In this document: positions 3,801 to 25,105 of the stretch, one piece after another
Layout: every line of letters starts with the position of its first letter
Numbering within the stretch: the first letter of the stretch is position 1
From: an uncultured Anaerolineales bacterium
GTDB taxonomy: Bacteria > Chloroflexota > Anaerolineae > B4-G1 > SLSP01
Length of the DNA stretch: 32,759 bases
NCBI GenBank assembly: GCA_964501335.1
Contig: CAZCTC010000010.1
Location: forward strand, 128,001-160,759
Reading direction: 5' to 3'
Notes under the pieces: model-generated
The model's database searches: none
Seen by the model: the letters and a program-made list of their open reading frames with translations, nothing else
Told to the model about the DNA's origin: nothing
Made by a program: the position numbers and the translations under genes

Positions 3801-4880
3801 TTAATTTTGGATTTAAAGCTGGTGCTTTTTATCGTGTTGGTGATCCTATCCGGGGCTGCCCTGGCGGCCTGGGAGTTTTATCGTTCACGGCAGCGCTATG
3901 GGTTGGGCACCACGCTGGAATCGGCGCCCTTTGGGGTGGTTTTGTTGGATGAGCAGCAAATCACTTATGCCAACGGGTATGCCCGGCGGGCGGCCGGCTT
4001 TGCCGCGGTGGGAAGATTGCCCGAGGCGCCCTGGCTGGAATTGCTGGCCGCGGATCGGGCGGCAGCCCGGAGTGATGCTACGGGAGCGGGGCGCTATCGT
4101 AGTGTGGCTTTCCCGGGTGGGGGGGCGGTGCGGTGGTGGGTTACGTCGGTCGGGTTGCGGGATCTGCTGGTGTTGTTGGATGCGACCGTCCATCCCGACG
4201 GCGAAGAGGCGGCGCGCTATTTGTTGAACGATCTGGCGCATGAATTGCGAACGCCGATGGCGACGATTCTGACGCATGCGGAAATTCTGGCGCTCCCTGA
4301 TATTGCCCCTGAAGTGCAACAGCAATCCCAACAGTTATTGAAAGAAGAGACCCGGCGGATGGCGCGGTTGGTGAACGATATGCTCGAACTGGGGCGTCTG
4401 GAGACGGGGGCTGAGATTGCGCTCCGGCCGGTGGATTTGATGGCGCTGGCCGAGGGGGCGGTGCGGCAGATTCAACCGCAGGCCGAGGCGCGGGCCATGA
4501 CGGTGACGCTGGAGGCCGGGGCGGAATTGCCGTTGGTGTTGGGGGATGAGGATCGACTGCGGCAGGTGTTGCTCAATTTGCTGGATAACGCTTTGAAGTA
4601 TTCCCGATCGGGGGACCGGGTCACGGTGGAATTGCAGGCGCGGGCCGGAGGGCTTTATTGTGCCGTGCGCGACAGCGGTCCCGGGATCGCGGCCCGCCAT
4701 TTGCCGCATCTGACGCGCCGTTTTTATCGGGCGGCGCCCCGGGGCATTGAGGGGAGCGGGCTGGGGCTTTCGCTGGCGGCAGAGATTTTGCGGCGGCACG
4801 GCAGCCGGTTGGAGATCGAGAGCCGGGTCGAGCCGCCCAGCGGCACCTCCGTTTCCTTTGAATTGCAAACTGAACAATGA
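3798..4880 (+). CDS. Sensor histidine kinase (single N-terminal TM, PAS-like region, HisKA, HATPase_c). An alternative GTG start at 3759 is in frame.
   Basis: H-box LAHELRTPMATI. N box LLNLLDNALKYS. G boxes DSGPGIA and GSGLGLSLAAEI. Hydrophobic N-terminus MLILDLKLVLFIVLVIL. Confidence 0.85.
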   Translation: MLILDLKLVLFIVLVILSGAALAAWEFYRSRQRYGLGTTLESAPFGVVLLDEQQITYANGYARRAAGFAAVGRLPEAPWLELLAADRAAARSDATGAGRYRSVAFPGGGAVRWWVTSVGLRDLLVLLDATVHPDGEEAARYLLNDLAHELRTPMATILTHAEILALPDIAPEVQQQSQQLLKEETRRMARLVNDMLELGRLETGAEIALRPVDLMALAEGAVRQIQPQAEARAMTVTLEAGAELPLVLGDEDRLRQVLLNLLDNALKYSRSGDRVTVELQARAGGLYCAVRDSGPGIAARHLPHLTRRFYRAAPRGIEGSGLGLSLAAEILRRHGSRLEIESRVEPPSGTSVSFELQTEQ

Positions 4881-5210: not shown

Positions 5211-6653
5211 ATGAAAAGAAAAGAGTGGTTACATTGGGGAGTCTGGTTGCTCACCGCGGCGGCGCTGCTGGGCTATTGGCTGCTGCCGATTTCGGGCGGG
5301 GTGGTGGTCTGGCAGGGTGAATCGGCTCCCTGGCCCTGGCCGTTGATCCAGCTGGAGCCTTCCATGCCACGGGCCGGGCAGCCGTTGACGATCCGGGTGA
5401 CCGATGAACATCCCCGGGTGCATGTTGCGTTGACGATCAATGGGGCCGCGCAGCCGGTATCCATGTGGGGCAAGGTTGCCGAAGGGCGCTGGGGTTGGAC
5501 CTGGGAGGTGATCGCGCCGGCGGCTTCGAGTTATGAGGTGGTTTTTTATTCCGATTGTCATGAGGGCTGTGTGGAGCGGGGCCGGGCGCAGATTGGGACC
5601 GTGGCTACCCCGACCGTTCCGGTGACGCCGACCAAGCTTTGCGTGGTCTTTCCCAATCCAGAACGGGACTGGCACAATCGCAGCGGGTGGGGTGTCGAAG
5701 TGGCTTATGTTAAGCTGGCCGATGATCCCTATTGGGGGCTGGATGGGCTGGCTCAACGGGTCTATCAGGATCAGGCTGCCGGGTTGCGGGTGTTGGTGCG
5801 GGTTGATTATGCCCAGGGGCAGAGTCTGCCCGGTGAAGCGAATTATCTGGAGCTGGATGATTATCTGGCTTATATGCGGCGGCTGGCCCGGGATCAACGG
5901 TTCCGCGATGGGGTGTATGGTTACATAATCGGGGCGGATCTGAATGTCGGACAGACGGGGGTGTCGCCGGCCTGGTATGCGCGGCTTTTTAACGGCTATG
6001 GCGAGGCGGTTTCGCATTCCGACAATGTGGTGCAGACGGTACGGGCGGAGAATCCGACGGTGCGGTTGCTGGTGGGGCCGGTGCGTCCCTGGTGTATGGA
6101 TCGAGACGGCGAGAAGCGGGCTGCGATCAATGTGCCCTGGTTGAATTATATGAATACGCTGGCGGCGGCGTTGGATGAGGGGGGGCAGGCGAAAGCGGGC
6201 GCGGGGATTGCGCTGGCGAGGCCGGACGGCTTTGATATCCAGGCGCCGGGGCATCCGGAGAGTCCGGAGATGCGAGGGCGCTCCCGTGCGGAGGAGCCGC
6301 GGTTGGATCTGGCCCGGGCGGAATGGAAGGGGGCCCAGGCGGGGTTCGGGGTCTATCGGGACTGGCTGACCATTATCAATTCCTATGAGGGATTGGCCGG
6401 GCTGCCGGTCTATATTATTTCGACCAATACCTATGATCGGGAGTCGAATATCCCGCCGGCGCAGAATTATCCTCAGGGGTGGTTGAGTACGGCGGCGGCG
6501 GTGATCGATGGCGAGCCGCAGGTGCAGGCGTTGTGCTGGTTTATGGACGATTTCCCGGATACGGAGGAGTGGGATTATTTCAGTCTGACCCGTCATCCGG
6601 GGCGGTTGGTGGATGCGGCGGAAGAGTTCGATCGTTTACTGCGCGGGCAGTGA
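5211..6653 (+). CDS. Hypothetical secreted or membrane-anchored protein, Trp-rich. Possibly a TIM-barrel glycoside-hydrolase-like fold (weak).
   Basis: 480-aa ORF with an N-terminal signal-anchor-like segment (WLHWGVWLLTAAALLGYWLL). No family motif I can name. The overlapping antisense ORF 5229-6596 is Arg/Pro-rich and judged spurious. Confidence 0.6.
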   Translation: MKRKEWLHWGVWLLTAAALLGYWLLPISGGVVVWQGESAPWPWPLIQLEPSMPRAGQPLTIRVTDEHPRVHVALTINGAAQPVSMWGKVAEGRWGWTWEVIAPAASSYEVVFYSDCHEGCVERGRAQIGTVATPTVPVTPTKLCVVFPNPERDWHNRSGWGVEVAYVKLADDPYWGLDGLAQRVYQDQAAGLRVLVRVDYAQGQSLPGEANYLELDDYLAYMRRLARDQRFRDGVYGYIIGADLNVGQTGVSPAWYARLFNGYGEAVSHSDNVVQTVRAENPTVRLLVGPVRPWCMDRDGEKRAAINVPWLNYMNTLAAALDEGGQAKAGAGIALARPDGFDIQAPGHPESPEMRGRSRAEEPRLDLARAEWKGAQAGFGVYRDWLTIINSYEGLAGLPVYIISTNTYDRESNIPPAQNYPQGWLSTAAAVIDGEPQVQALCWFMDDFPDTEEWDYFSLTRHPGRLVDAAEEFDRLLRGQ

Positions 6654-6671: not shown

Positions 6672-7298
6672 ATGCAGGAGAAAATTCGGGTATTGCTGGC
6701 AGATGATCATCCGGCACTGCGGATGGGCTTGCGGGTGCTGTTGGATCGCGATGCCCGGATCACGGTGGTGGGAGAGGCGGAGAGTGGGGATGAGGCGTTG
6801 GCTCAGATCGAGGCGCTGCTGCCGGATGTGGCGGTTCTCGATTGCCAGTTGCCGGGGCTTGAAGGGGCGGCGGTGGCGGCGGAATTGAAGCGGCGGGGCC
6901 TTCCCTCTCGAATTCTGGCTCTGAGTGCCTATGACGACGATCGTTACCTGCAACAGATGTGGGAGGCGGGGGCGGTCGGTTATTTGCTTAAAAACGAGGC
7001 GCCGGGGGAGATTGTGGCGGCGGTTGTGGCTACCATGCAGGGCAAGGTGCTCTGGTCGACGGAGCAGCTGGCGCGGGCCCGGCGTTGGAACGACGATGTG
7101 GGGCGGCTGCGACGCAGTCTGACCGATCGGGAGACCGAGGTGTTGCAGCGGATGGCGGAGGGGTTGAGCAACAAAGAGATTGCGACGGCGCTTTCGGTGA
7201 CGGAACGGACGGTGGAATTCCATGTGGGGAATGTGCTGCGCAAATTGGGGGTGATTTCTCGGGTCGAGGCGGCTATCTGGGCCCGGGAACATTTGTAA
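6672..7298 (+). CDS. Two-component response regulator, NarL/FixJ (LuxR-type HTH) family
   Basis: REC domain (LLADDHPALRMGLRVLL, phospho-acceptor region VAVLDCQLPGLEG). C-terminal LuxR HTH (LTDRETEVLQRMAEGLSNKEIA...TVEFHVGNVLRKLG). Confidence 0.9.
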   Translation: MQEKIRVLLADDHPALRMGLRVLLDRDARITVVGEAESGDEALAQIEALLPDVAVLDCQLPGLEGAAVAAELKRRGLPSRILALSAYDDDRYLQQMWEAGAVGYLLKNEAPGEIVAAVVATMQGKVLWSTEQLARARRWNDDVGRLRRSLTDRETEVLQRMAEGLSNKEIATALSVTERTVEFHVGNVLRKLGVISRVEAAIWAREHL

Positions 7299-12253: not shown

Positions 12254-13594
12254 ATGAGGCGAAGTACCGCTGGAATCGATTTGGAGTTTGACGTTCCCAG
12301 GATTTTTGCCATGTTGCGGCGCCGGCGAAAAGAACGTCCTGTCCGGCGCCGCGCCTGTCTGGAACTGGAACGAAATGTCGGCGGTCCGCTCTGGCAACTG
12401 GTGGTGCTGGGGTTGATCACCAGTGCTTTGTTAAAGGAGCCCTTTTTCTTAGGGCTCACTTTTTGTATGGCGGCTTTTTTGGGGGTTGCCTGGCTGTGGG
12501 ACCATTTCAGCCTGACGGGGGTGCGTTATCGGCGTAAATTTAGTGAGGTGCGCGCTTTTCAGGGGGAAACGGTTATCTTGACTCTGGAAGTGGGCAATCA
12601 AAAGTGGTTGCCGGTGAGCTGGCTGGAGGTGGGCGACATTTTCCCCGGAGAACTGCCGGTGGCCGGCGAACGGGTGATCATCTCTTCATCGACCAATCAG
12701 GTCGAATTCACCACGTTCTGGCATCCGGCCGCTTATCAGAGTTTGACCCGGGTGATGGAAGTGCCCTGTATGCAGCGGGGGTATCATTTTTACGGGCCGG
12801 CAACGGTCCGTACCGGCGACGGCTTCGGCTTTTTCAGTCGGAAGTTGACTTTGCCGGAGCGGGATTTGCTGATCGTCTATCCCCGGCTCTATTCGGCGAC
12901 GGAACTCGATCTGCCTTCGAAGAATCCGTTTGGGGAGCGGCGGACGCTGTTCAAACTTTTTGAGGACCCGTTGCGTCCGGCGGGCATTCGCGACTGGCAG
13001 TTCGGCGATGGGATGCGGCGGGTGCACTGGAAGGCGACCGCGCGTTACGAGCGGTTGCTCAGCCGGATTTACGAGCCGAGCGAGGAGCCGCAGGTGATGA
13101 TTTTGTTGAATGTCTCCACGTTGCCGCGTTATTGGGAGGGGATTGTTCGAGAGTTGTTCGAGCGCACGGTCAGTGTGGCGGGCAGTCTGGCCGCGTTGGC
13201 CATCGAGGAGCGGTTGTCGGTCGGGCTGGCGGCCAATGCTTACTGGCCGGGGAGCGATCAGCGATTGGAGCTCTTCCCGGGGCGGCGGCAGGAGCAGTTG
13301 TTGCATATTTTGGAGTTGCTGGCGGCCGTGACGCCTTATGCCAGTGAATCTTTTGAATCTGTGTTGTTGCAGGTGGCTCCCCGATTGCCCTGGGGAGCCA
13401 CTTTGCTGGTCGTTTCGGCGGTTGCGACCCCCGAATTGTGGGAAACGCTGGTCGATCTGGATCGAGCCGGGCGACAGGTCACGCTCTTCACCCTGGTTGA
13501 GACGCCGCCCGAATTCCCGCCGATCGGCATTCCGGTTTATCATCTACCGCAGTTGATCGACGATCTGGTTATTCCTCAAAAGGTAGCGGAGTAG
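12254..13594 (+). CDS. DUF58 domain protein (vWA-like; usual partner of MoxR ATPases)
   Basis: N-terminal TM. DUF58 signature region IRDWQFGDGMRRVHWKATARYERLLSRIYEPSEEPQVMILLNVS (D-x-R-x-x-x-W-K-A-x-A-R...L-x-x-x-E, then a run of hydrophobics). Confidence 0.8.
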   Translation: MRRSTAGIDLEFDVPRIFAMLRRRRKERPVRRRACLELERNVGGPLWQLVVLGLITSALLKEPFFLGLTFCMAAFLGVAWLWDHFSLTGVRYRRKFSEVRAFQGETVILTLEVGNQKWLPVSWLEVGDIFPGELPVAGERVIISSSTNQVEFTTFWHPAAYQSLTRVMEVPCMQRGYHFYGPATVRTGDGFGFFSRKLTLPERDLLIVYPRLYSATELDLPSKNPFGERRTLFKLFEDPLRPAGIRDWQFGDGMRRVHWKATARYERLLSRIYEPSEEPQVMILLNVSTLPRYWEGIVRELFERTVSVAGSLAALAIEERLSVGLAANAYWPGSDQRLELFPGRRQEQLLHILELLAAVTPYASESFESVLLQVAPRLPWGATLLVVSAVATPELWETLVDLDRAGRQVTLFTLVETPPEFPPIGIPVYHLPQLIDDLVIPQKVAE

Positions 13595-13596
13595 GT

Positions 13597-15063
13597 ATGC
13601 AGCGCGGTGGTTTGTTTCTGGATTTACGGCGCAATTTACTTTATCTGTGCCTGGTAGGAATCGATTCCGCCTGGTTTGCTCTGCTGCTGCCTTTGTTGGG
13701 GGTGCAGTCGACCTTATCCTGGTCGCCGTTGATCTTGTGGGGTATGTTGGCGGTGGGGATGTGCGGCTGTCTGGTGGTGCTGGAGCTTTTCAATCGGATC
13801 GGTTTGGGGAGGCCCTGGTATCCGCTGGCCGTGGCGGCTCTGGTCCTCTTGACGATTGTGGGGCTGATGCGGGTGGTGATTTACAACGGCTGGCCCTTTT
13901 GGAGTTGGGGCTGGGGGGAGCAGATCCTGCTCAGCTTTTTGCTGTTTGAAACCTGGCCGCGGCCGGAGCTGGCGCTGGCTGCGACCGGCTTTTTTGTCTG
14001 GCAGCGGGCTACCTGGGCGACGCGTCGATCGCTGGATTGGCGTGATGTCAGCAGCAATTTCTGGTTGGGCCTCTTCTTTTTGGGCTGCGGCGGGCTCTTT
14101 TGGGAGTTGTGGTTGAAGCAGCCGGCGCCGTTGGCGTTTGTCTGGGGCTATTTTGGATTGGGGATGGTGGCGTTGGCGTTGACGCGGGCCCATACGGCGC
14201 CGTTGCTGGTGCGGAGCATGGGGGCAGAGCTTTCGCCGGTGCGGCTGGCTCAACTGGGGATGACGGTGGGCCTGACCTTGCTGATCGGCGGGTTGAGCTG
14301 GTGGGGGCTTTCACAGCCTTTAATAGGGTTTGTGGCCTGGCTGGGGCCGTTGTGGAACTTTCTCTTTGTGTTGGTGGAAGTGTTGGTGGTATTGTTGATT
14401 TTTGTCGGCTGGCGGTTCTGGCAGTTTATTTCGGAGCTGTTGAAGGGGGAGCTGCTGCCGGCCTTGCAAAATCTGGAGGATATCTCTCGCTCGATTCAGC
14501 AGCTGGGAGAACAATTGGCCCAGCAGGCCGGATTGAATTTTGTCTGGCCTCCCTGGCTCGGGCTGGTTTTGCGTATTGGTGTGGCATTGTTGATTTTGTT
14601 GCCGGGTTTGTGGCTGGTGCTGGTCTATTTGGGGATCATTCAGCCGCCGCGGCGCCGGGAGGACGACGAGTATGCGAATCGATTGTCGGCGGAGCGGTTG
14701 TTGTGGGATGGATTGGATTCGCTGCGCGATCTGGGCCGGTTGATGCGCCGGTATGGGTTCAGCCGGCAGATGCTGGCGGCGATTTCGGTGCAGAATCTCT
14801 ATGCCAATGTGTGTCGTTTGGGGCGGCGGCAGGGGCGGCCGCGGCGGCCGTCGCAGCCCCCGGATGCTTATTTGCCGCAGCTGGTGGCGGCTTTTGAGGG
14901 GCTGGATAGTCAGTTGTCCCGGATCACGGAGGCCTATATGCAGGTGCATTACGGGGATCGGTCGGTTACGAATGAGGAACTGGCCCGGCTGCGGAAGGAT
15001 TATGCGGAGGTGCGGGCGCAGGCGGGGCGGAAGCGGCGCCTGGACGTGAAACGTAAAACGTAA
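13597..15063 (+). CDS. Polytopic membrane protein with a C-terminal DUF4129-like domain (the third usual member of MoxR/DUF58 operons)
   Basis: About 10 hydrophobic helices. C-terminal region GRRQGRPRRPSQPPDAYLPQLVAAFEGLDSQLSRITEAYMQVHYGDRSVTNEELARLRKDY matches the DUF4129 pattern (R..G.P...S.TP.EY......L.......Y...RYG). Confidence 0.7.
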   Translation: MQRGGLFLDLRRNLLYLCLVGIDSAWFALLLPLLGVQSTLSWSPLILWGMLAVGMCGCLVVLELFNRIGLGRPWYPLAVAALVLLTIVGLMRVVIYNGWPFWSWGWGEQILLSFLLFETWPRPELALAATGFFVWQRATWATRRSLDWRDVSSNFWLGLFFLGCGGLFWELWLKQPAPLAFVWGYFGLGMVALALTRAHTAPLLVRSMGAELSPVRLAQLGMTVGLTLLIGGLSWWGLSQPLIGFVAWLGPLWNFLFVLVEVLVVLLIFVGWRFWQFISELLKGELLPALQNLEDISRSIQQLGEQLAQQAGLNFVWPPWLGLVLRIGVALLILLPGLWLVLVYLGIIQPPRRREDDEYANRLSAERLLWDGLDSLRDLGRLMRRYGFSRQMLAAISVQNLYANVCRLGRRQGRPRRPSQPPDAYLPQLVAAFEGLDSQLSRITEAYMQVHYGDRSVTNEELARLRKDYAEVRAQAGRKRRLDVKRKT

Positions 15064-15250
15064 AACGTATTTCCTGTCCTGCGCGGCGTTACAAGGCCGG
15101 GGGGCGGTACTTCAAAGGATGAAAATGGTTTGTCGGGTGCAGTTTCCTGGGGTCTGCGAATCCCAGGCTACCCTAAGGTCGCCCCTTTGGGGCTGAGAAG
15201 GCTCGACAAAAAGGTGCCTGCTAATTTAGCGAAGGCAAAAAAGGGGAAGG

Positions 15251-15288
15251 GGGGAATTTGCACGCCTTCTGAGGCGTGCAAATTCCCC
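15251..15288 (+). repeat. Perfect 16-bp hairpin GGGGAATTTGCACGCC-TTCTGA-GGCGTGCAAATTCCCC, a member of the TTCTGA-loop hairpin family, in the gap between the DUF4129 gene and moxR
   Basis: Exact inverted repeat with the family loop TTCTGA. Preceded by an A/G-rich tract (aaaaaaggggaagggg). No 3' T-tract. Confidence 0.7.
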
Positions 15289-15369
15289 TTAACAACACAC
15301 TCCCCCTTTCCCCCGCTTGCGGGGTGCGAAGCAGGGGGCAGGGGGGATAGAGGGATATAAGGAGGCCTT

Positions 15370-16308
15370 ATGGAGTTCTCAGAGCTGGCGAAAGCGATTA
15401 AACAGAATGTCGGCCGGGTGATCATCGGCAAGGCGGATGTGGTTGAGATGTTGTTGATTGCCCTGTTGACTGAGGGACATGTGCTGTTGGAGGATGTTCC
15501 AGGGATCGGCAAAACGACGCTGGCCAAGGCTTTGGCACGGAGTCTGGATGCTTCTTTTGCGCGCATCCAGTTCACGCCGGATCTGCTGCCGGGCGATGTC
15601 ACAGGGTTGAGCATTTACAATCAGAAAGAGCGGGAGTTTGAGTTTCACGCCGGGCCGGTTTTCCGTCAACTGCTGTTGGCCGATGAAATCAACCGGGCGA
15701 CGCCGCGGACCCAATCCAGCCTGCTGGAGGCCATGCAGGAGCAGCAGGTGACGGTGGACGGCAAGACCTATGCGTTGCCGCGGCCCTTTCTGGTCATTGC
15801 GACGCAGAATCCGATTGAGCTGGAGGGGACCTTTCCCTTGCCGGAGGCGCAGCTGGACCGCTTTTTGATGCAGGTGCGGTTGGGGTATCCCAGCGAAGCT
15901 GAGGAAGAGGAAATTCTCTTGCAATACGAGCGTCAGGATCCGCTGGTGGAGCTGCGGCCGGTGGTAACGATGGCCGAGATTCAGGAATTGCAGCGAAAAG
16001 TGCGGGAGATCCATGTCAATGGGGATGTGCGGCGGTATATCGTGCAGGTGGTGCGGACGACGCGGGAACATGAGGCGGTGGCGCTGGGCGGTTCGCCGCG
16101 GGGGACGCTGGCGCTCTATCGGTCAAGCCAGGCGCTGGCGGCGTTGCGGGGACGGGATTATGTCACGCCGGGCGATGTGCAGCAGCTCTGTCCGGCGATT
16201 TTAACGCATCGCGTGCATATTCGGCCGCAGGTGCGGTTACGAGGGCGTACGCCGGCGCAAGTAGTGGCGGAAATCATTGAAGCGGTGCCGGTACCGGTAG
16301 TTGAATAA
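15370..16308 (+). CDS. MoxR-family AAA+ ATPase
   Basis: SD aaggagg 15357-15363. Walker A GHVLLEDVPGIGKTTLAKALA. Walker B LLADEINRA. Characteristic MoxR length (312 aa) and C-terminal region (YVTPGDVQQL). Confidence 0.95.
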   Translation: MEFSELAKAIKQNVGRVIIGKADVVEMLLIALLTEGHVLLEDVPGIGKTTLAKALARSLDASFARIQFTPDLLPGDVTGLSIYNQKEREFEFHAGPVFRQLLLADEINRATPRTQSSLLEAMQEQQVTVDGKTYALPRPFLVIATQNPIELEGTFPLPEAQLDRFLMQVRLGYPSEAEEEEILLQYERQDPLVELRPVVTMAEIQELQRKVREIHVNGDVRRYIVQVVRTTREHEAVALGGSPRGTLALYRSSQALAALRGRDYVTPGDVQQLCPAILTHRVHIRPQVRLRGRTPAQVVAEIIEAVPVPVVE

Positions 16309-16312
16309 GGCT

Positions 16313-18343
16313 ATGATGGAGATTTCGGGTTATAAAATTCGCGTGAAAATAGCGCGGCTGGCCTTAAGCGGGCAATTTATCTGCCTTACTGGAATCCTGG
16401 TCATTTATTTTGGGCTGGCGTTGGGCTATAGAATTGCGGGGCCTTTTAATCGCCCTGTATGGATGAATTTGTATTTATTGCTGGCGCTGGATATCTGTTC
16501 TTTTATTTCCGTTTTCTGGTTGAGAAGATCGTTGACTCAGGCGGTGTGGGGGTATGCCTGGAGCAATCTCATTTATGTGGTTTTGATGCTGGGCTATCGG
16601 CTGCTCGATTTCAACTCTCCGAAAATCGATCCTCCTTATATTATCTTTTTATTGCATTTGAATATCTTTTCGTTGGGGATTATATTTGGTTTTCGTCCGG
16701 CGTTTAAATATGCCCTGGCGACCGTCGTCGTATTTTTAGTGGTGGGAATTTTCTATACCGAACGGCTGTCGATTGTGGTGGGAATTTTGTTTGCTTTGCT
16801 TATGACCTTTCCTCCTTTGGGGATCGATAAGTTAATGGCGGAGTTGCGGCAAAGCCAGGAAAAATTAAGTATCATTTTTCGAGAATCTCCGGATGTGATT
16901 TTAGTGTTGGATCCGGCGACAGGGAGAATTTGGGAGGGGAATGCCGCTGTCAAATGGGTGTTAGGTTACGTGGAAGAAGAGCTGCGTGGGGAACCTTTCA
17001 GTAAATTGTATGAATCGGATTCGCCGTTGGGAAAGGAGAAACTCTGGTATGTGGAGGCTCAGCGGCGGGATACCCACGGTTCCCAGTTCTTTTTGAAAGC
17101 CGATGGAACGCGCTGTCCGATGGATTGGACGGCGGCGCGCATTCCCTGGGATGAGGATTCGGCGATCCTGATTACGTTACGGGATGTGACGGAACGTTAT
17201 CAGGCGGAGGTGGAGCGAGCTCGTTTTACGGCCCAGTTGGGGGCCGCGGCCGAACTGGCGGCCCGGATCAATGCTTATCTGGATGCCGATCAGTTGTTGC
17301 CGATGGTGGTGGCTCAGGTGCAATCCCGCCTGGATGTGGCCCGGGCGGCGATCTATTTGTTGAATGAGGATTTGCAGGCGGCGCTTTCTCCTGCTGTTAA
17401 AGAGAGTGTGAGCCTGGGGGCATTGATGGCCTCGTCCAGCGTTATTGCCCGGGTGGTTCAGAACCGGGAGATGGTCAGGATTGACGATCTTCAGGAGTTG
17501 TCGTCAGAAGATCTTCCGTTTTTGCAGGCGGGGATGCAGACTCAACTGGTCGTTCCTTTGATTGTGCAGGATTGTCTGTTGGGCGTGATGGATCTTCAGG
17601 ATCTGCGGCCGGGGCGTTTTCATACCATCGATCTGGATGTCTTTTTCACGCTGGGGGTTCAGATCGCGACATCGCTTGAGAATGCGCGGCTCTTTGGGGA
17701 ATTGCAGAAGACGGCCCGTAATTTGCAGGGCCTTTCGCATCGTCTGGTGGCGGTGCAGGAGCAGGAGCGGCGGAACATTGCCTGTGAACTGCACGATGAG
17801 ATCGGGCAGATGTTGACGGCATTGAAGTTAATGCTGGATATGAGCAGCGGCGCCGGGGATTCGCAACAGGAGGCGCGGGATATGGTGCGCGATCTGTTGG
17901 AGCGGGTGCGCAACCTTTCGTTGGAGTTGCGGCCGCCGATGCTGGACGATTTAGGGATTTTGCCGGCGCTGGTCTGGCTTTTCAACCGTTATACCACGCA
18001 GACCCATATCAAAGTGAGTTTTCGCCATTCCGGGTTGGAGCGGCGTTTTACCCCGCAGATTGAGACGGCGGCCTATCGAGTGATCCAGGAATCGTTGACC
18101 AATGTCGCCCGCCATGCTCGTGTGCAAGAGGTCGAGGTGCGGTTGTGGGCGGATGAGGCGCAATTGCAGGTGCAGGTGGAAGATAACGGTCAGGGATTTG
18201 ATCTGGACGAAGTGCTGAGCCAGGCGGGTTCCAATGGATTATCGGGGATGCGGGAACGGGTTATGTTGTTGGGCGGAGAACTGACGATCGATTCCCGGCC
18301 GGGGGCGGGGACTTCGCTGGTGGCGGAGTTGCCCTTGCAATGA
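16313..18343 (+). CDS. Sensor histidine kinase, NarL-partner type (polytopic membrane domain - PAS - GAF - HisKA_3 - HATPase_c). A TTG at 16301 overlapping the moxR stop is an alternative start.
   Basis: HisKA_3 H-box CELHDEIGQMLTALK. HATPase N/G boxes (LTNVARHA, DNGQGFD, GLSGMRERVMLLGG). GAF block before LENARLFGELQ. AT-richer N-terminal membrane domain with a PVWMNLYLL motif. Confidence 0.9.
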   Translation: MMEISGYKIRVKIARLALSGQFICLTGILVIYFGLALGYRIAGPFNRPVWMNLYLLLALDICSFISVFWLRRSLTQAVWGYAWSNLIYVVLMLGYRLLDFNSPKIDPPYIIFLLHLNIFSLGIIFGFRPAFKYALATVVVFLVVGIFYTERLSIVVGILFALLMTFPPLGIDKLMAELRQSQEKLSIIFRESPDVILVLDPATGRIWEGNAAVKWVLGYVEEELRGEPFSKLYESDSPLGKEKLWYVEAQRRDTHGSQFFLKADGTRCPMDWTAARIPWDEDSAILITLRDVTERYQAEVERARFTAQLGAAAELAARINAYLDADQLLPMVVAQVQSRLDVARAAIYLLNEDLQAALSPAVKESVSLGALMASSSVIARVVQNREMVRIDDLQELSSEDLPFLQAGMQTQLVVPLIVQDCLLGVMDLQDLRPGRFHTIDLDVFFTLGVQIATSLENARLFGELQKTARNLQGLSHRLVAVQEQERRNIACELHDEIGQMLTALKLMLDMSSGAGDSQQEARDMVRDLLERVRNLSLELRPPMLDDLGILPALVWLFNRYTTQTHIKVSFRHSGLERRFTPQIETAAYRVIQESLTNVARHARVQEVEVRLWADEAQLQVQVEDNGQGFDLDEVLSQAGSNGLSGMRERVMLLGGELTIDSRPGAGTSLVAELPLQ

Positions 18344-20409
18344 AGACATCTAAGGAAAGCTATTTAGAAATCGATTATTCTGAACAGCTTGCCCGGGAGA
18401 AGATTGCCAGGGTGATTTTGCTTAGCAATGTTATTGCCCTTGGAGCCCTTTTTATTTTCAATCTGGTTAGATTAATCTTAATGTTAACGGAAGAGCCGGG
18501 GTATCAACCCGCCTGGTATTCATTCTTTAGTATGGCGGCGTTGGTGGGGGGCGGGATTGTTGCGTTGGGTTGGATCAGGAGATCGCTTTTTGCGGGAATG
18601 GTGTTTTACGCCTGGTTTGCATTGTTTTGTGTCCTGGTAATGATTGTGGGAGCCTTTATATGGGGAGGTCTGCAACGTTACCCTTTAATAGTGTTAGTTT
18701 TTTATATAGGGATTTTATCTCTCAGTGTTATTGTAGGATATAAGACAGCTTTACCTTATGCAATTGTTGTGTCTTTGGTAATGGTGGTCTGTGGGGTAAT
18801 TTTTAATGATGTGCTTTTTTCAGTACCTTTGGTCGTTACCTCTTATTTAATGGTTTTGCCAGCCTTATTCATTGATTATATGACCGATAGTATAAGACAG
18901 AGTGAACAACGGTTTAAAATCCTTTTTCAGGAATCGCCGGATTTGATTGTGGTCGTTGAACGAGAAACGGGGATTGTGTTACATGTCAATTCGGCGTTGG
19001 AACGTTTTACAGGGTATTTTCCTGAAATGTTGATAGGCAAATCCTTTTTTGATGTTTTTCCTCAAGAAGTGTTTCCTGACTTAACTGAAATTTCAGAGGG
19101 TCAACCCCGAGCCGAATTTCGTGCTGTTGCAGATCGAGCTTTTTATCGGTTGGATGGGACTCTTATTTTTATGGATTTGAGTATAGCTTCAATAGTTTGG
19201 ATGAAGAGATCTGCTTTGTTGGTGGTTTTAAGAGACGTTACTGGGCGCCATCGCGCAGAGGAAGACCGTCAACATTTTACGAAACAATTGCGAGTGGCCG
19301 CAGAGTTGACTGGCCAGATTAATACCTGTCTGAACTCTGAAGCCTTAACTTTCATGATAGAAAATCAAATGGAGCAACTTTTGAATTTGAGTCGGGTGAG
19401 AATTTTTCTCTTTGATGAAAAAAGTCAAACCCTTGTTCGATATGCAGGTGGCTCGGAAATTGTGAAATCTTATCATTTGCAGGATCCCTACCTAGTGGCA
19501 CAAGCTGCCCATGATCTCATTCTGGTTCAGGCCCTTAAAGAATCAAAGATGGATGATGGGAGGAGATTGGATTCTGAGGGGGATATGGGAGGGCAGGTAG
19601 CAGTACCTTTGGTTTCACATGGAAAACTTTTGGGAGTGTTAGACATTCAAGATATCAGTCCAAATCGATTTCATCCCGGTGATCTGGATATTTTCTATAC
19701 TTTGGCAGGGCAAATTGCTGTAGCTTTGGAAAATGCTCGTTTATTTGGAGACTTGCAGAAGACGGCGATGCATTTACAGGGGCTTTCTTTGCGGTTGCTT
19801 GAGGTTCAGGAGCAGGAACGTCGGAATATTGCGTGTGAGTTGCATGATGAGATGGGCCAAATGTTAACTGCTATCAAGTTGCTTTTGGAAATGAAGAAGT
19901 CCAAATTGGGGAGGGCGGCAGATAATTCGGATCAGGAAATTGGGGATCTTGTGTCGGATTTGTTGAATCGAATTCGGAATCTCTCTTTGCAATTGCGACC
20001 GCCGATGCTCGATGATCTGGGGATTTTACCAACTTTAGTATGGTTGTTTAATCGTTATAGCCATCAAACTCAGATAAAGGTTAATTTTAAGCATGTGGGA
20101 TTGGAACGCCGTTTTTCTTCTCAGGTAGAGACAGTTATCTATCGTGTAATTCAAGAATCTTTAACTAATGTAGCACGTTACGCTATGGTGGATAATGTCG
20201 ACGTTTATATCTGGGGGGATGAATCAATTTTACGGTTACAGGTCGACGATAATGGAGTCGGGTTTGATTTGGATAAGGTTTCAGGTCAATTGAGCTCTAA
20301 CGGCCTTTCTGGCATGCAGGAACGGGTTACTTTACTGGGGGGACAATTCTTGATAGATTCTAAACCAAATTTTGGAACCCATTTGATGGCGGAAATTCCC
20401 CTGCAATAA
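18340..20409 (+). CDS. Sensor histidine kinase, tandem paralog of 16313-18343 (membrane domain - PAS - GAF - HisKA_3 - HATPase_c), distinctly AT-richer than its neighbour
   Basis: ATGA start/stop overlap with the upstream kinase. H-box CELHDEMGQMLTAIK. ENARLFGDLQKTAMHLQGL is nearly identical to the paralog. Membrane-domain motif EPGYQPAWYSFFS. Confidence 0.9.
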   Translation: MKTSKESYLEIDYSEQLAREKIARVILLSNVIALGALFIFNLVRLILMLTEEPGYQPAWYSFFSMAALVGGGIVALGWIRRSLFAGMVFYAWFALFCVLVMIVGAFIWGGLQRYPLIVLVFYIGILSLSVIVGYKTALPYAIVVSLVMVVCGVIFNDVLFSVPLVVTSYLMVLPALFIDYMTDSIRQSEQRFKILFQESPDLIVVVERETGIVLHVNSALERFTGYFPEMLIGKSFFDVFPQEVFPDLTEISEGQPRAEFRAVADRAFYRLDGTLIFMDLSIASIVWMKRSALLVVLRDVTGRHRAEEDRQHFTKQLRVAAELTGQINTCLNSEALTFMIENQMEQLLNLSRVRIFLFDEKSQTLVRYAGGSEIVKSYHLQDPYLVAQAAHDLILVQALKESKMDDGRRLDSEGDMGGQVAVPLVSHGKLLGVLDIQDISPNRFHPGDLDIFYTLAGQIAVALENARLFGDLQKTAMHLQGLSLRLLEVQEQERRNIACELHDEMGQMLTAIKLLLEMKKSKLGRAADNSDQEIGDLVSDLLNRIRNLSLQLRPPMLDDLGILPTLVWLFNRYSHQTQIKVNFKHVGLERRFSSQVETVIYRVIQESLTNVARYAMVDNVDVYIWGDESILRLQVDDNGVGFDLDKVSGQLSSNGLSGMQERVTLLGGQFLIDSKPNFGTHLMAEIPLQ

Positions 20410-20575
20410 ATTTTTTATATTACCCCCTGGTTTTTTTGAGACTGTTTTTTTGTTTTTCTGGTTTTTAAGAGGAAAATGCTATAATGTTTGTATCGCTCCC
20501 TGGGGCGTTTCTATCCTGTATGCTCCCAGCCAGGGATGGCGGCATCACCACAACCTGTTTCCAAGGAGGCCAGTT

Positions 20576-20875
20576 ATGGCACACGCAGCGATTAGTTGGA
20601 TTTCGGGAAGGGTTTTTCTTTTTAAAGATTTTGTGGGGATGGTCGAGAAAAACGTTCAGGAAAACGGATGGGATGGTTTTTTCAAGGAACAGGGCGAAGT
20701 GTTTATGAAGGAATTCGGCAAAGCGCCCGATTGGACAGAGGATGAACGGAAAGTTTTTGCCACCGCTTTTGAGAACGGTAGTTTGCGGAAAGTGGTGGAT
20801 CTGTGGTGGGGCAGCTATGTGGAGGCCCGGGAAGCGGGGCTTTTAAAGTCGGCCGCAGAATATTGGGAATTTTAA
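20576..20875 (+). CDS. Small hypothetical protein X1 (99 aa) carrying one copy of an unrecognised ~85-aa domain (motif F-x-A/T-A-F-x-N-x-x-L-R-x-V-V-x-x-W-W-x-x-Y-x-E)
   Basis: SD aaggagg 20563-20569, 6 nt before ATG 20576. Paralogous to both halves of 21104-21661 (VFATAFENGSLRKVVDLWWGSYVEAREAG vs VTFVACFKNLRLREVVVQWWHAYDEGRKKG and ATFTAAFYNSHLRDVVENWWFVYEEE). Confidence 0.55.
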   Translation: MAHAAISWISGRVFLFKDFVGMVEKNVQENGWDGFFKEQGEVFMKEFGKAPDWTEDERKVFATAFENGSLRKVVDLWWGSYVEAREAGLLKSAAEYWEF

Positions 20876-20904
20876 CTCTTAACTTTATTTTTCAGAAGCG
20901 AGGG

Positions 20905-20942
20905 AAGCCCTTCTCGATAGTCTTATCGAGAAGGGCTTTTTG
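20905..20942 (+). terminator. Rho-independent terminator: 15-bp stem AAGCCCTTCTCGATA-gtct-TATCGAGAAGGGCTT followed by TTTTG
   Basis: Perfect inverted repeat plus a 3' T-run, 30 bp after the stop of 20576-20875. Confidence 0.7.
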
Positions 20943-20987
20943 TTGGTAGGGGGAATGGTTAGCATGTTCAAACATTTATGAGCTTGT

Positions 20988-21016
20988 TTGATTTTTTCTC
21001 GAAAACGGCATACAAT
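20988..21016 (+). promoter_or_regulatory. Sigma70-like promoter candidate TTGATT-17 bp-TACAAT upstream of 21104-21661
   Basis: -35 TTGATT 20988-20993, 17-nt spacer, -10 TACAAT 21011-21016, about 90 nt upstream of ATG 21104, in an AT-rich gap. Confidence 0.45.
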
Positions 21017-21103
21017 GGTATTGGTATGCCCTGGCATATTTCATTTTGCTTGGCCAACTTCCAGGGAAGGGGCGAAGCTGTTGTTAAAGTAAGGAGAAGT
21101 GTC

Positions 21104-21661
21104 ATGATAAATCAAATAAAAACTTTACCCCTTGAAGATTATGAAATACATGTGGTTGGGTATCACGATATTTTACGTCTTACGGGATTGATCTTTTTGG
21201 AGCGAGGTTTTGTTGCAAGGGTAGATGCCCGCGGGATCGATGCTGTTCTCGCTGAAATGGGCTCTGTCGATCTGGATGTTGAACAGGCGGTTACCTTTGT
21301 CGCCTGTTTCAAGAATCTTCGCTTGCGTGAAGTTGTGGTGCAGTGGTGGCATGCCTATGATGAGGGGCGGAAAAAGGGTGAGATCCCTCAGGCGGAACCT
21401 TATTGGACTCCTAATAGACCCACCGGTTATCAGGATATTGTACGGCTTTCGGGGTTGGTTTTCTTTCAACAGAATTTTATAGCCAGGGTGGATGCGCTGG
21501 GGCTGGATGCGATGATTGCGATGGAAGCCGTTTATGGTGATTTAACAGCTTTACAACGTGCTACTTTTACGGCAGCTTTCTATAATTCTCATCTGCGGGA
21601 TGTGGTAGAGAACTGGTGGTTTGTTTATGAAGAGGAACGGTCTTTGAACCATATTCCTTAA
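21104..21661 (+). CDS. Hypothetical protein X2 (185 aa) made of two tandem copies of the same ~85-aa WW-motif domain found in 20576-20875
   Basis: SD aaggag 21091-21096 before ATG 21104. The internal halves align with each other (YHDILRLTGLIFLERGFVARVDARGIDAVL vs YQDIVRLSGLVFFQQNFIARVDALGLDAMI; ...VVVQWWHAYDEG vs ...VVENWWFVYEEE). Confidence 0.55.
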   Translation: MINQIKTLPLEDYEIHVVGYHDILRLTGLIFLERGFVARVDARGIDAVLAEMGSVDLDVEQAVTFVACFKNLRLREVVVQWWHAYDEGRKKGEIPQAEPYWTPNRPTGYQDIVRLSGLVFFQQNFIARVDALGLDAMIAMEAVYGDLTALQRATFTAAFYNSHLRDVVENWWFVYEEERSLNHIP

Positions 21662-21754
21662 ACCTGAATAGTTTTGGCTAATGCTTAGCAATGATCGAAG
21701 CCAGGTGATGTTGGCTGTTTTGATTGATCGAGATTCAATTTCGAACTTCGAGAG

Positions 21755-21797
21755 TGTTCCGGGATTTTGAGCCCGGAACATTCTTATTTTTGTTTTT
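21755..21797 (+). terminator. Rho-independent terminator: stem TGTTCCGGG-attttgag-CCCGGAACA followed by TTCTTATTTTTGTTTTTG
   Basis: 9-bp GC stem plus a long T-rich tail, about 95 bp downstream of the 21661 stop. Confidence 0.65.
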
Positions 21798-21853
21798 GAT
21801 TTTAATGGGTCAGGTATAATTAGGAGAAAAATGGGCCCTGGAAGATTTCGCAT

Positions 21854-23659
21854 TTGTTGGTTGTAAGGGAAAGGAGTCCAGTGAGTGATCGTTTGCAATC
21901 TTCTTCATCTGTTCGTTATAAAACAGCTCGTTTAATTTTATGGTTTAATGCTTTCTTTTTGACTGGGGCGACTGTTCTGAGCCTTGGGTTGTTTATATTA
22001 AAAAGATTCTATCAACCCGGTTATGAACCTGCCTGGATTAATTTTTTTAGCACAATTGCGTTATTTGTTTCTGTATGGGTTTCTTTATATCGGATCCGGT
22101 ATTCTCTTTTTCAAGGTTTTTATTTATATGGCTGGTTGGGGTTGATTTGTATTACTATAGTGCTTTTTTATAATGTTTTTGTAGAGCATGAGGTTGAAAT
22201 TCCTTTTATTGTTTTTGCGTTGCATATTGGGATTTTTGCTGCCGGATTGATCCTGGGATTAAGATATGCGTTGATTTATGCCACCGTAGTCAGTGTTATT
22301 GTGACCATAGTGGGATTTTATTGTAAGAATACAGGATTTGCGGTTGCTGCGGTCGGTCTGGCCTACGGCATGACCCTCCCTTCCTGGCTGGTGGATCAGC
22401 TGGAGCGCGATCTGCGGAAAAGCGAAGAGAAATTTATTACGATCTTCCGGGATGCGTTGGATGTGATTCTGGTGGTGGATCTCGATACCCGGGTGATTCT
22501 CAAGGTGAACCGGGCGGTCGAGACGGTGTTGGGGTATGAATCCGAGGTGTTGTTGGGCCAGCCGGTTTCGATTTTATGGTTGCCGGAGGGGGAGCTTTCC
22601 AGTTACCATTTCTGGGAAGATTTGCGCACCAGGAAGGCAATTTTTGAATCGACTTCGTTCCGGCGGGCTGACGGGCTGCTCTGTCCGGTGGATTTGACGG
22701 CGACGGTGATCCCCTGGGAAGATCACAATGCGGCGCTGGTGACGCTGCGCGATGTGACGGAGCGCTATTATGTGGAGGAGCAACTGCGCCGCCATCAAGA
22801 ACAACTGGAACAGCAGGTGCAGGATCGTACGGGGGAGTTGCAGACGGCCAACGATCAGTTGCGGATCGAGGTTTTGGAACGGCAACGAGCCGAAGAGACG
22901 TTGCGGGATCAGGCTGTGGAGCTGGAGGCCCGGAATGTGGAGCTGGATGCGTTTGCCCATACGGTGGCCCACGATCTGAAAAATCCCCTGACTAATTTGA
23001 TCGGCTTCAGCAATCTGCTGGAACGACGTCTGGAACGCCTTTCGCCCGACAAAATAGCTTCGTATGTGCAGATGATCGGTCAAAACGGCCGCAAGATGAA
23101 CAACATCATTAATGAGTTGTTGTTGCTGGCCAGTGTGCGCAAGATTGAAGAGGTGGAGCGCGATGTGCTGGATATGGCCACCATTGTGCATGAGGCGCAG
23201 GATCGCCTGCGGGATATGCTGGCCGAATCTCAGGCGGTGGTGACGGTGCCCGAGCAATGGCCGCCGGCTTTCGGTTACGGGCCCTGGGTGGAAGAAGTAT
23301 GGGCCAACTATATCAGCAACGCGATCAAGTATGGCGGAGTGCCGCCGCGGGTGGAGTTGGGCGCTGAGCGGCTGGTGGATGGGCGGGTGCGCTTTTGGGT
23401 GCGCGATAACGGCAAGGGATTGACCCTTGAGGAACGGGCTCAGCTTTTCACGCTTTTTACCCGGCTGGATAAGGTCCGGGCCCGGGGGCATGGTTTAGGC
23501 CTTTCGATTGTGCGGCGGATTGTGGAGAAATTGGGCGGTGAGGTCGGTGTGGAGAGCGAAGTAGGGCAGGGAAGCTGTTTTTCCTTTATTTTACCGGCGG
23601 CTGCGGTATCTATGGCGGTGCAGCCCACGTCGACCCCGTTGCTGGGCCGGCAGGATTGA
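21854..23659 (+). CDS. Sensor histidine kinase (membrane domain homologous to those of the two preceding kinases - PAS - coiled-coil - HisKA - HATPase_c). The GTG at 21881 after SD aaggag (21871-21876) is the more likely start.
   Basis: Membrane motif QPGYEPAWINFFS. H-box VAHDLKNPLTNL. N/G boxes (YISNAIKYG, DNGKGL, GHGLGLSIVRRIVEKLGG). Nucleotide composition switches from AT-rich to GC-rich at about 22380, just after the last TM helix. Confidence 0.85.
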   Translation: MLVVRERSPVSDRLQSSSSVRYKTARLILWFNAFFLTGATVLSLGLFILKRFYQPGYEPAWINFFSTIALFVSVWVSLYRIRYSLFQGFYLYGWLGLICITIVLFYNVFVEHEVEIPFIVFALHIGIFAAGLILGLRYALIYATVVSVIVTIVGFYCKNTGFAVAAVGLAYGMTLPSWLVDQLERDLRKSEEKFITIFRDALDVILVVDLDTRVILKVNRAVETVLGYESEVLLGQPVSILWLPEGELSSYHFWEDLRTRKAIFESTSFRRADGLLCPVDLTATVIPWEDHNAALVTLRDVTERYYVEEQLRRHQEQLEQQVQDRTGELQTANDQLRIEVLERQRAEETLRDQAVELEARNVELDAFAHTVAHDLKNPLTNLIGFSNLLERRLERLSPDKIASYVQMIGQNGRKMNNIINELLLLASVRKIEEVERDVLDMATIVHEAQDRLRDMLAESQAVVTVPEQWPPAFGYGPWVEEVWANYISNAIKYGGVPPRVELGAERLVDGRVRFWVRDNGKGLTLEERAQLFTLFTRLDKVRARGHGLGLSIVRRIVEKLGGEVGVESEVGQGSCFSFILPAAAVSMAVQPTSTPLLGRQD

Positions 23660-23669: not shown

Positions 23670-24377
23670 ATGGAGGTGATCTGGGCCGGGTTGATTGAAG
23701 GCTTGCGCTTGTTTTTTACCGGTGATCCGGCTTTGTGGACCGTGATCGGACGCTCGGCTCAGGTGAGCGGGGTGGCGTTGCTGGTGAGCAGTTTGTTGGG
23801 CGTTCCCGCCGGCGCGGTGTTGGGGCTGACCCGTTTTCCTGGTCGGCGTCTGGTGCAGGCTCTGGTTTATACCGGAATGGGGCTGCCGCCGGTAGTGGTT
23901 GGGCTGGCGGTCTATCTGTTGCTTTCGCGCAACGGCATCCTCGGGCCGTTGCATTGGTCCTGGGTCCCCGAACTTTTTACCCCTGAGGCGATGATTTGGG
24001 CTCAGGTGGTGATTGCCGTGCCGATGGTGGTGGGCTTCACGATGGCGGCGGTGGCCGGGGTGGATCCTGAACTGGGGCGGCAACTGGCCGCTCTGGGGGC
24101 GACGCGGTTGCAGGTGGGCCTGGCGGTGCTGCGCGAGGCGCGTTTGGGGGTGCTGATCTCGATCATCGCCGGGTTGGGGAGCATTATTTCCGAGGTTGGG
24201 GCGGTGATGATGGTGGGCGGCAATATTGAGGGCTATACGCGGGTTTTGACTACCGCTATTATGCTGGAGACCCGGCAGGGCAATTTCGATCTGGCGATTG
24301 GATTGGGGCTGGTTCTGTTGGGCCTTTCGTTTGTGATCAATCTGGCGATGACTTTGTTGCAGGGAAAGGGACGTTGA
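23670..24377 (+). CDS. ABC transporter permease (TupB/ModB/CysTW-like small-anion importer family; substrate not determinable)
   Basis: 235 aa, 5-6 TM. EAA-like loop LAALGATRLQVGLAVLREARLGVLISIIAGLG. Its stop overlaps the ATPase start (TGATG). Confidence 0.8.
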   Translation: MEVIWAGLIEGLRLFFTGDPALWTVIGRSAQVSGVALLVSSLLGVPAGAVLGLTRFPGRRLVQALVYTGMGLPPVVVGLAVYLLLSRNGILGPLHWSWVPELFTPEAMIWAQVVIAVPMVVGFTMAAVAGVDPELGRQLAALGATRLQVGLAVLREARLGVLISIIAGLGSIISEVGAVMMVGGNIEGYTRVLTTAIMLETRQGNFDLAIGLGLVLLGLSFVINLAMTLLQGKGR

Positions 24378-25105
24378 TGACGGCATCGATTTACAGGTTG
24401 GAAGGGGTGCGCCGGCTTTATCAGGGGCGGCCCGTGGTGGATATCGCGCAGCTGGATGTGGAACCGGGAGAGATTCTGGCGATTGTGGGGCCAAGCGGGG
24501 CGGGAAAATCGACGTTGTTGCGGCTGCTCAATTTTTTGGAGTTTCCTGACAGCGGTACGCTTCATTATCGCGGGCACTCTGTGACGCATGAGTCGGTGAC
24601 GCTGGCGCTGCGTCGTGAAGTGACGACAGTCTTTCAACGGCCGGCGTTGCTTTCAATGAGCGTGATGGAGAATGTGACTTACGGGTTGCATCTGCGCGGC
24701 GAGCGCGGGGGGCGGGCCCGGGTGGAGACGGTGCTGGAGCGGATGGGGCTGGCGGCCTTGAGCAAGGCGCCGGCGCGGACGCTTTCCGGCGGTGAGGCGC
24801 AGCGGGTAGCTCTGGCCCGCGCGTTGGTGATCCGGCCGGCGGTGATGTTGCTGGATGAACCTACGGCGAATCTGGATCCTTACAATGTGGGGTTGATCGA
24901 ATCGGTGGTGGCCGGGATGAATCAGGAAGAAGGCACGACGATGGTGCTGGTGACCCATAACATTTTTCAGGCCCGCCGATTGGCCCGGCGCGTTGTTTTT
25001 TTGCTTAACGGGCAGGTTGTTGAGGTCGCTCCGAGCCGGGCCTTTTTTGAAATGCCCGTCGATCCGCGAACGGCGGCTTTTGTGCGCGGCGAGATGGTTT
25101 GTTAG
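24377..25105 (+). CDS. ABC transporter ATP-binding protein
   Basis: Walker A GPSGAGKST. Signature LSGGEAQR. Walker B MLLDEPTANLD. H-loop VLVTHN. Confidence 0.9.
   Translation: MTASIYRLEGVRRLYQGRPVVDIAQLDVEPGEILAIVGPSGAGKSTLLRLLNFLEFPDSGTLHYRGHSVTHESVTLALRREVTTVFQRPALLSMSVMENVTYGLHLRGERGGRARVETVLERMGLAALSKAPARTLSGGEAQRVALARALVIRPAVMLLDEPTANLDPYNVGLIESVVAGMNQEEGTTMVLVTHNIFQARRLARRVVFLLNGQVVEVAPSRAFFEMPVDPRTAAFVRGEMVC

Follow-up and report, generated by a model that had tools for sequence, protein, structure and literature searches.

Two adjacent small genes, here called A and B, lie in a 32,759-nucleotide (nt) stretch of contig CAZCTC010000010.1 (positions 128,001 to 160,759; assembly GCA_964501335.1) from an uncultured Anaerolineales bacterium; the whole stretch is referred to as the window, and positions are counted from its first letter. 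A is a gene with one copy, and B with two copies, of the same small domain, and the pair is placed among three genes for histidine kinases (HK1, HK2, and HK3; Table 1), each of which begins with a six-transmembrane (six-TM) domain. The present study reveals that A and B are members of an unnamed family of acidic, soluble, all-alpha proteins with a five-helix domain of about 85 to 90 residues. The genes of this family pair almost obligatorily with a gene for the six-TM domain, whether or not the latter carries a kinase.

Genes A and B carry three copies of one domain

Two other assemblies cover this locus, one from a JGI metagenome and one from an SRA run, and in both of them independent gene callers recognized A and B as genes for proteins of 99 and 185 amino acids (aa). 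An earlier interpretation made from the letters of the DNA (hereafter the sequence-only reading) had proposed that one domain is present three times across the two genes. BLASTP bears this out, as domain 1 of B matches A with 32% identity (E 2e-11) and domain 2 of B with 49% identity (E 5e-26). When aligned, the three copies share 20 invariant columns, including those of the motif F..F.N..LR.VV..WW..Y.E.R. A differs from the other two copies by a 13-aa insertion between helices 2 and 3, and its C-terminal tail reads ...AAEYWEF.

The same reading had assigned to each gene its own Shine-Dalgarno (SD) site, and to A its own terminator. Both assignments hold: the SD sites, read from the sequence, are AAGGAGG for A (20563-20569) and AAGGAG for B (21091-21096), and A is followed by a strong terminator, made up of a perfect stem of 15 to 16 base pairs (bp; 20904-20939) and a U-run. 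A terminator-like hairpin that follows B had not been mentioned. The near-consensus promoter claimed for B fared less well. A site with nine of the 12 consensus positions is present, but the region holds two promoter-like sites where shuffled sequences give 2.8 ± 1.7, a count not above expectation, and the evidence for this promoter is weak. Neither Rfam families nor tRNAs were found in the window.

Table 1. Features of the family genes and kinases in the window (ORF, open reading frame; HMM, hidden Markov model; AF2, AlphaFold2; pLDDT, predicted local distance difference test)
Feature	Coordinates	Strand	Evidence
Gene A, single-domain family member, 99 aa	20576..20875	+	ORF, SD, family HMM 76.6 bits, AF2 pLDDT 91.7
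Intrinsic terminator 3' of A (15-16 bp stem, 4-nt loop, U-run)	20904..20947	+	Centroid -26.5 kcal/mol, z -4.3
Promoter-like site 5' of B, TTGATT-17-TACAAT	20988..21016	+	9/12 consensus matches
Gene B, two-domain family member, 185 aa	21104..21661	+	ORF, two HMM domains, 206.6 bits, AF2
B domain 1, residues ~17-103, ...PYW tail motif kept internally	21152..21412	+
B domain 2, residues ~104-185, tail truncated (...SLNHIP), lacking the conserved Trp	21413..21658	+
Terminator-like hairpin (14 bp) and T-run between B and HK3	21750..21795	+	Hairpin itself 21750-21785
HK1: six-TM domain, PAS, GAF, HisKA_3, HATPase; 4-nt overlap with HK2	16301..18343	+	Pfam, TM prediction
HK2: six-TM domain, PAS, GAF, HisKA_3, HATPase	18340..20409	+	Pfam, TM prediction
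HK3: six-TM domain, PAS, HisKA, HATPase	21881..23659	+	Pfam, TM prediction
Six-TM input domain of HK3, proposed docking partner	21881..22420	+

A family absent from the named libraries

For A and B, Pfam returned no family at E ≤ 10, and NCBIfam, PHROGs, and PADLOC gave only noise even at permissive thresholds. The PDB sequences held no significant match for B or for the family profiles. When members were scanned singly (35 against Pfam and 49 against NCBIfam), no named family was matched by more than one of them, and public sources either leave members unlabeled or call them "hypothetical protein." The statement of the sequence-only reading that no named family could be recognized thus stands for all these libraries.

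Relatives exist nevertheless. With a profile of the three window copies as the query, HMMER was run exhaustively over 1.84 billion representative proteins and yielded 45 proteins at E ≤ 1e-3, of which 23 had E ≤ 1e-10. Nearly all were single-domain proteins of 83 to 120 aa, mostly 85 to 95 aa, and three were two-domain proteins. A word-indexed protein search recovered only B itself when B was the query, and only seven proteins with a 35-sequence profile.

The first of these word-indexed results, together with the AT-rich composition of the region, could be taken to mean that A and B are chance ORFs or a fast-evolving ORFan without function. We give this explanation a negligible probability. 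The homologs from beyond the window genome, 45 among the representatives and 47 non-duplicate genes in fetched loci (see below), exclude the ORFan or pseudo-ORF alternative that the sequence-only reading had raised. Besides, the motifs are kept across 25 to 50% identity, the predicted folds are confident, gene order is conserved, and SD sites and terminators are present. A relative of A from another sample, about 90% identical and in the same 90% cluster, differs from it by substitutions only.

The family signature runs ...LAGxVF..R.F...GLD...(C)PYGDLT..Q...F.A....LR..V..WW..YD..R..G.IP, followed by a spacer of 3 to 12 residues and [F/Y/P]-W-x(-x) at the C-terminus; its N-terminal conserved element is ...(G)Y.D...LAG.VF..R.F. 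Across the family alignment, invariance is confined to the second W of WW and the Y. The C-terminal Trp, the second residue of an aromatic-Trp pair, is 98% conserved and lies two to four residues from the end, after a spacer that varies in both length and sequence. Domain 2 of B is the sole copy seen with a truncated tail and without this Trp. The Cys-Pro of ...CPYGDLT was considered as a heme or redox site and rejected, being about 56% conserved and absent from all three window copies.

Three unusual architectures were also seen. P0025 has N-terminal TM helices fused to the small domain, P0041 runs from the small domain into C-terminal TM helices, and P0029 joins a HAD-like N-terminus to the C-terminal half only of the domain. 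All three come from very short contigs and may be real fusions or artefacts of assembly or frameshift.

Predicted fold and recurrent fusion

AlphaFold modeling, named as a check in the sequence-only reading, gave confident all-alpha folds for both proteins. B (mean pLDDT 87, predicted template modeling score 0.81, from a 32-sequence alignment) is modeled as two all-alpha domains of five helices each, and its first 16 residues are predicted to be disordered. In the model of A (pLDDT 91.7), the 13-aa insertion merges helices 2 and 3 into one long helix. The C-terminal tail of A has low model confidence (pLDDT 61) and is therefore probably flexible. A search of BFVD for the fold gave no match.

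No TM segment or signal peptide was predicted in the family proteins. Their median isoelectric point is 4.7, and 88% of members carry a net negative charge; the N-terminal tails of the partner kinases are net positive in 93%.

In a neighbor-joining tree, B, P0002, P0003, and the L061 protein form one clade. For three of its members, first domains cluster with first domains and second with second, whereas the halves of B cluster together. P0004 has its domains in different places of the tree, and A is a long-branch member. From this placement of the two-domain proteins, fusion has occurred at least twice. Single-domain forms dominate, and the two-domain minority arose from them repeatedly, in agreement with the duplication and fusion of a single-domain ancestor that had been suggested from the window alone. 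Recurrent tandem fusion would fit a protein that works as a homodimer.

Family genes stand directly before a six-TM domain

Further loci were gathered by means of degenerate DNA patterns of the helix-5 motif over GTDB species genomes and JGI metagenomes, followed by a filter with the family HMM. About two-thirds of the pattern matches in genomes (gammaproteobacteria, Solobacterium) failed the HMM and were discarded. Among genomes, true members came from metagenome-assembled genomes (MAGs) of Chloroflexota/Anaerolineae only; the other loci are unclassified metagenome contigs. In all, 58 family genes were found, 47 of them non-duplicate.

For 39 of the 47 non-duplicate genes, the product of the next gene on the same strand starts with one specific six-TM domain of about 180 aa. 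The gap between the two genes has a median of 6 nt and is at most 25 nt in 29 of the 39 cases, with several overlaps. Eight genes are not paired in this manner. Three (L022b, L087, L118) are at contig ends or in fragments, three (L022a, L113a, L107a) are second divergent copies or the first of tandem copies beside another pair, one (L065) is a miscalled ORF, and one, from L061, is a genuine exception that is taken up in the Discussion. Viewed from the other side, and within the fetched loci, 47 of 48 kinases with the six-TM domain have a family gene directly upstream, the 48th being cut by the end of its locus. The accessory role in signaling that the sequence-only reading had inferred from the position of A and B is strongly supported by this conserved gene order before an input domain that usually belongs to a kinase.

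Pairs of small gene and kinase occur in tandem in L043 and L111, and L004 shows a partial arrangement of this kind. The other neighbors are variable and of housekeeping type, such as PBP1A with PriA in one clade and an ABC-2 transporter with an MFS protein in another; the neighbor clusters also include MFS/ATG22, EamA, and GH32. A second divergent family copy of the P0012 type (111 to 116 aa) is found in L022 (1107-1457, minus strand) and L113 (982-1332, minus strand), transcribed away from the normal pair. The extra copy in L022 points to an ABC-2 type transporter ATPase, and the gene downstream of that in L113 is unannotated. The same ABC-2 transporter lies divergently beside the pair in several other loci that have no extra copy.

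Notably, the window brings three copies of the small domain together with three TM-domain kinases. HK3 is 44 to 59% identical to the kinases found downstream of family genes and is of the same kinase type as those in other genomes. It is also the only window kinase with an upstream family gene, B, at a distance of 220 nt.

The six-TM domain is the constant partner

The six-TM domain, which forms the N-terminus of HK1, HK2, and HK3, has six predicted helices connected by very short loops and corresponds to no Pfam family. Its only invariant or nearly invariant residues are R12, A16, and G126, and it has no conserved polar or catalytic signature. We considered an AgrB-like peptidase and rejected it, as neither conserved catalytic residues nor a conserved His/Cys pair is present.

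The kinase cores that follow this domain differ. They are of the HisKA type, as in HK3, or of the HisKA_3 type, as in HK1 and HK2 (L063, L093, L109, and L119), and a PAS domain may be present or absent. Furthermore, in a distant branch of the family (P0011 at L123, P0036 at L124, and P0045 at L065) the next gene encodes a stand-alone membrane protein of 136 to 195 aa with five to six TM helices. These three proteins are the only non-kinase matches of the TM-domain HMM (E 1e-5 to 6e-3) among 11,522 ORFs that include many unrelated membrane proteins. Their gene pairs (L065 240-951, L123 105-958, and L124 575-1319) lie within dense runs of small unannotated genes. For two more distant members, the next genes encode unannotated proteins of 200 and 234 aa. 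Because the kinase cores differ and stand-alone TM partners occur, the constant partner of the small protein is the TM input domain and not the kinase core.

Base composition of the module

The sequence-only reading had placed A and B inside an AT-rich island. The composition is real, with a GC content of 0.37 to 0.47 in this segment versus about 0.58 to 0.62 in the flanks. GC content at third codon positions (GC3) forms a mosaic over 18300-22420, with a sharp boundary near 22420, inside HK3 at the junction of its TM and PAS parts. Specifically, GC3 is 0.36 in the TM part of HK3 and 0.69 in the rest of that gene, 0.40 in HK2, 0.42 in B, 0.52 in A, and about 0.70 in the flanking genes. In HK1, the TM part (16301-16900) has a GC3 of 0.52 versus 0.67 in the remainder. 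B and the TM domain of HK3 share a low GC3 and therefore one compositional history, which suggests their co-replacement in the window and speaks for a partnership of the small protein with the TM domain. In other genomes, too, GC3 of the module is 0.57 to 0.65 versus 0.73 in its neighbors. Thus, the "island" is in part a general property of the module and not simply a foreign island.

Surroundings of the module in the window

An operon of DUF58, DUF4129, and a MoxR-type AAA+ ATPase (12254-16308) lies directly upstream of HK1, whose start overlaps the end of the MoxR gene. The segment 87-7298 is rich in signaling genes: a dCache-HAMP-GAF-PAS histidine kinase (87-3122), a second HisKA kinase (3759-4880), a 480-aa ORF without a Pfam match (5211-6653), and a NarL/LuxR-type response regulator (6672-7298). 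For the HisKA_3 kinases HK1 and HK2, this regulator is the closest candidate for a partner. Ten nt after HK3, genes for a binding-protein-dependent-type permease and an ABC ATPase follow (23670-25105); this pair is of importer type, unlike the ABC-2 exporters that accompany the module in other genomes. The GC skew is uniform at about +0.2 to +0.3 over positions 1-29000, where nearly all long ORFs are on the plus strand, and moves toward zero after about 29000, where minus-strand genes begin.

Discussion

The chances are, in our judgment, about even that the small protein serves the six-TM input domain as an accessory subunit or co-sensor that is acidic, cytoplasmic, and probably dimeric. In such a scheme it would dock, as a homodimer or as the fused pseudo-dimer of B, on the cytoplasmic face of the TM domain or on its basic N-terminal juxtamembrane segment. 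Helix 5, which is conserved, and the flexible tail with its Trp tip could make the contact. Through docking, the small protein would act as an auxiliary co-sensor or regulator that sets or relays the signal controlling kinase activity. The physical binding, the dimerization, and any effect on the kinase are our inferences. Conserved genetic linkage with a kinase, one of the marks of auxiliary regulators of histidine kinases (a functional class and not a homology family), is evident here. The small protein also appears to have diverged slightly more in step with the TM domain than with the kinase core (correlation of distances, r 0.84 versus 0.78; partial r 0.63 versus 0.43), which lends weak support to the same partnership.

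Auxiliary proteins are known for some intramembrane-sensing histidine kinases: GraX for GraS, LiaF for LiaS, SaeP and SaeQ for SaeS, and BceAB for BceS. Of these, GraX is a cytoplasmic protein whose gene lies upstream of that for its kinase, LiaF and SaeP/SaeQ belong to the membrane proteins or lipoproteins, and BceAB is a transporter. The module described here resembles these systems in that the accessory gene shares a locus with a kinase whose membrane part has short loops, and in that the signal would be delivered or gated by an accessory protein and not by an extracellular domain. In contrast, our family has no sequence or fold relation to any of them, being a much smaller, acidic, five-helix domain. 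Moreover, its six-TM input domain is itself unnamed, and the pairing also occurs without a kinase. A second group of small cytoplasmic proteins, comprising Sda and KipI (for KinA) and SipA (for NblS), modulates histidine kinases by direct binding. Their targets are the DHp or ATP-binding domains, and their genes show no synteny with any particular membrane domain. The present family is likewise small and cytoplasmic, but its fold is unrelated to theirs and its constant partner is a TM domain, whatever the kinase core.

Several observations weigh against the accessory-subunit proposal. In the atypical arrangement of the window, A and B form separate monocistronic units that end in terminators of their own and show no translational coupling to a kinase, and neither HK1 nor HK2 is immediately preceded by a family gene. 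The two-domain homolog of L061, the genuine exception among the unpaired genes, adjoins no TM-domain gene. The reverse census is biased because its loci had been fetched via the small protein, and the word-indexed search with a TM-domain profile that was meant to remove this bias returned nothing, not even the kinase of the window itself. The correlations of divergence given above are inflated by shared phylogeny. Finally, a Trp two to four residues from the C-terminus, encoded just before a polytopic kinase, would also fit a pheromone precursor, and three weak signals point toward the RiPP-like Os1348 family (RiPP, a peptide made by the ribosome and modified after translation).

These last points lead to an unlikely explanation, namely that the folded domain of about 75 residues is a protein-like leader of the NHLP, Nif11, or Os1348 type and that its Trp tail is released and exported, possibly after modification, for the cognate six-TM kinase to sense. 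The near-universal Trp after a variable spacer, the probable flexibility of the tail, and the position of the gene just ahead of one for a polytopic kinase whose outside loops are very short would all suit a precursor, as would the tails that differ between paralogous pairs of one genome (L043, L111, L113). In ComX/ComP of Bacillus subtilis, as in AgrD/AgrC of staphylococci, the gene for a small precursor lies beside that for a polytopic receptor kinase, and ComX bears a modified Trp about three residues from its end. Our family shares with these systems the small gene directly upstream of a multi-TM kinase and an aromatic residue near the C-terminus. The ComX-like combination of a C-terminal Trp and a gene upstream of a polytopic kinase is thus present; it is necessary for a precursor and far from sufficient. 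Unlike ComX and AgrD, which are short and unstructured, the family has a confidently folded domain of 85 aa. Unlike AgrD, its tail has no Cys for a thiolactone and is internal or absent in fused copies. No ComQ-like polyprenyl transferase was found in the window or the related loci, and no AgrB-like peptidase among the neighbors; the tails have neither a conserved Cys nor a conserved Ser. Indeed, near the roughly 47 family genes no protease, modifying enzyme, or exporter is conserved, be it a prenyltransferase, AgrB, a radical SAM protein, or a C39 peptidase. The proteins have neither a signal peptide nor a double-glycine site, and the released peptide would measure only two to six residues. 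Two-domain proteins keep the first tail in their interior, and in domain 2 of B the Trp tail is missing altogether. Pairing is seen, too, where the TM protein stands alone and lacks an output domain.

Os1348 is a dimeric, all-alpha protein of 85 aa with a flexible C-terminus and a putative RiPP precursor (PDB 6lk7); it has six helices and adjoins GNAT, HEXXH, and SagB-type genes (PMC7726476). Canonical NHLP leaders have three helices and two strands (PMC12537861). Our family is like Os1348 in its length of about 85 aa, its all-alpha fold, and its flexible C-terminal tail, and possibly in its dimeric state, but it has five helices, as opposed to the six of Os1348 and the mixed fold of canonical leaders. 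The model NF038399, "Os1348 family NHLP clan protein," was the top NCBIfam match with a non-significant best E of 0.015 in one of 49 members, and PF14407 (Frankia_peptide) gave a likewise non-significant E of 0.021 in one of 35; all scores to RiPP precursors are below significance. A PDB profile search with the family did not recover 6lk7, and no SagB-type dehydrogenase, HEXXH protein, GNAT, cyclodehydratase, LanM, or similar protein is among the neighbors of the family genes. A broader version, in which the small protein and the six-TM domain are an ancient ligand-receptor pair whose leader is distantly related to Os1348/NHLP and whose Trp tail is sensed by the kinase, appears to us quite improbable.

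We also assign a low probability to an ancient complex of the small protein and the six-TM protein with a non-signaling role, such as membrane or envelope action or lysis or exclusion in mobile elements, to which the kinase was fused secondarily. Under this view the small protein would serve as a subunit for structure, assembly, or gating and would not regulate phosphorylation. The stand-alone TM partners of distant family members speak for such a complex, and further observations add to it: in L065, strong PHROG matches fall on ParB-like and PAPS-reductase/DUF3440 genes, an M23 peptidase is encoded on another contig, the genes downstream include some for small coiled-coil and two-TM proteins, and P0025 and P0041 join the small domain to TM helices. 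The distant branch may thus reside on a prophage or another mobile element, the phage label being a tentative one drawn from only the PHROG matches of L065 and a single M23 peptidase. Most members, however, pair with kinases, and a conserved polar or catalytic signature is missing from the TM domain. Furthermore, no member was found in IMG/VR by the pattern scan, which gave one chance match, and a scan there with P0045 found no relative; tblastn with two distant members and two of their neighbors against 50,697 phage genomes returned nothing.

A kinase that works with a small auxiliary protein is an established concept. What is new here is that both the small family and the TM domain are unnamed in the libraries searched, and that their tight linkage is, to our knowledge and within a limited search of the literature, undescribed. 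The signal input of histidine kinases without an extracellular domain is mostly an open question, and the few established auxiliary partners are mainly from Firmicutes. Two linked, unnamed families with pairing as frequent and gaps as short as found here are tight enough to predict a complex, and both could be defined and named in annotation. Should the ligand-receptor reading be true, filamentous Chloroflexota would signal from cell to cell by peptides; each genome would hold many paralogous pairs of diverged specificity, and mobile elements would carry relatives of them. How a kinase could have recruited an older membrane complex as its input is suggested by the stand-alone TM partners. In the MAGs of Chloroflexota/Anaerolineae, an understudied group that is hard to culture, the module has expanded to several paralogous pairs per genome.

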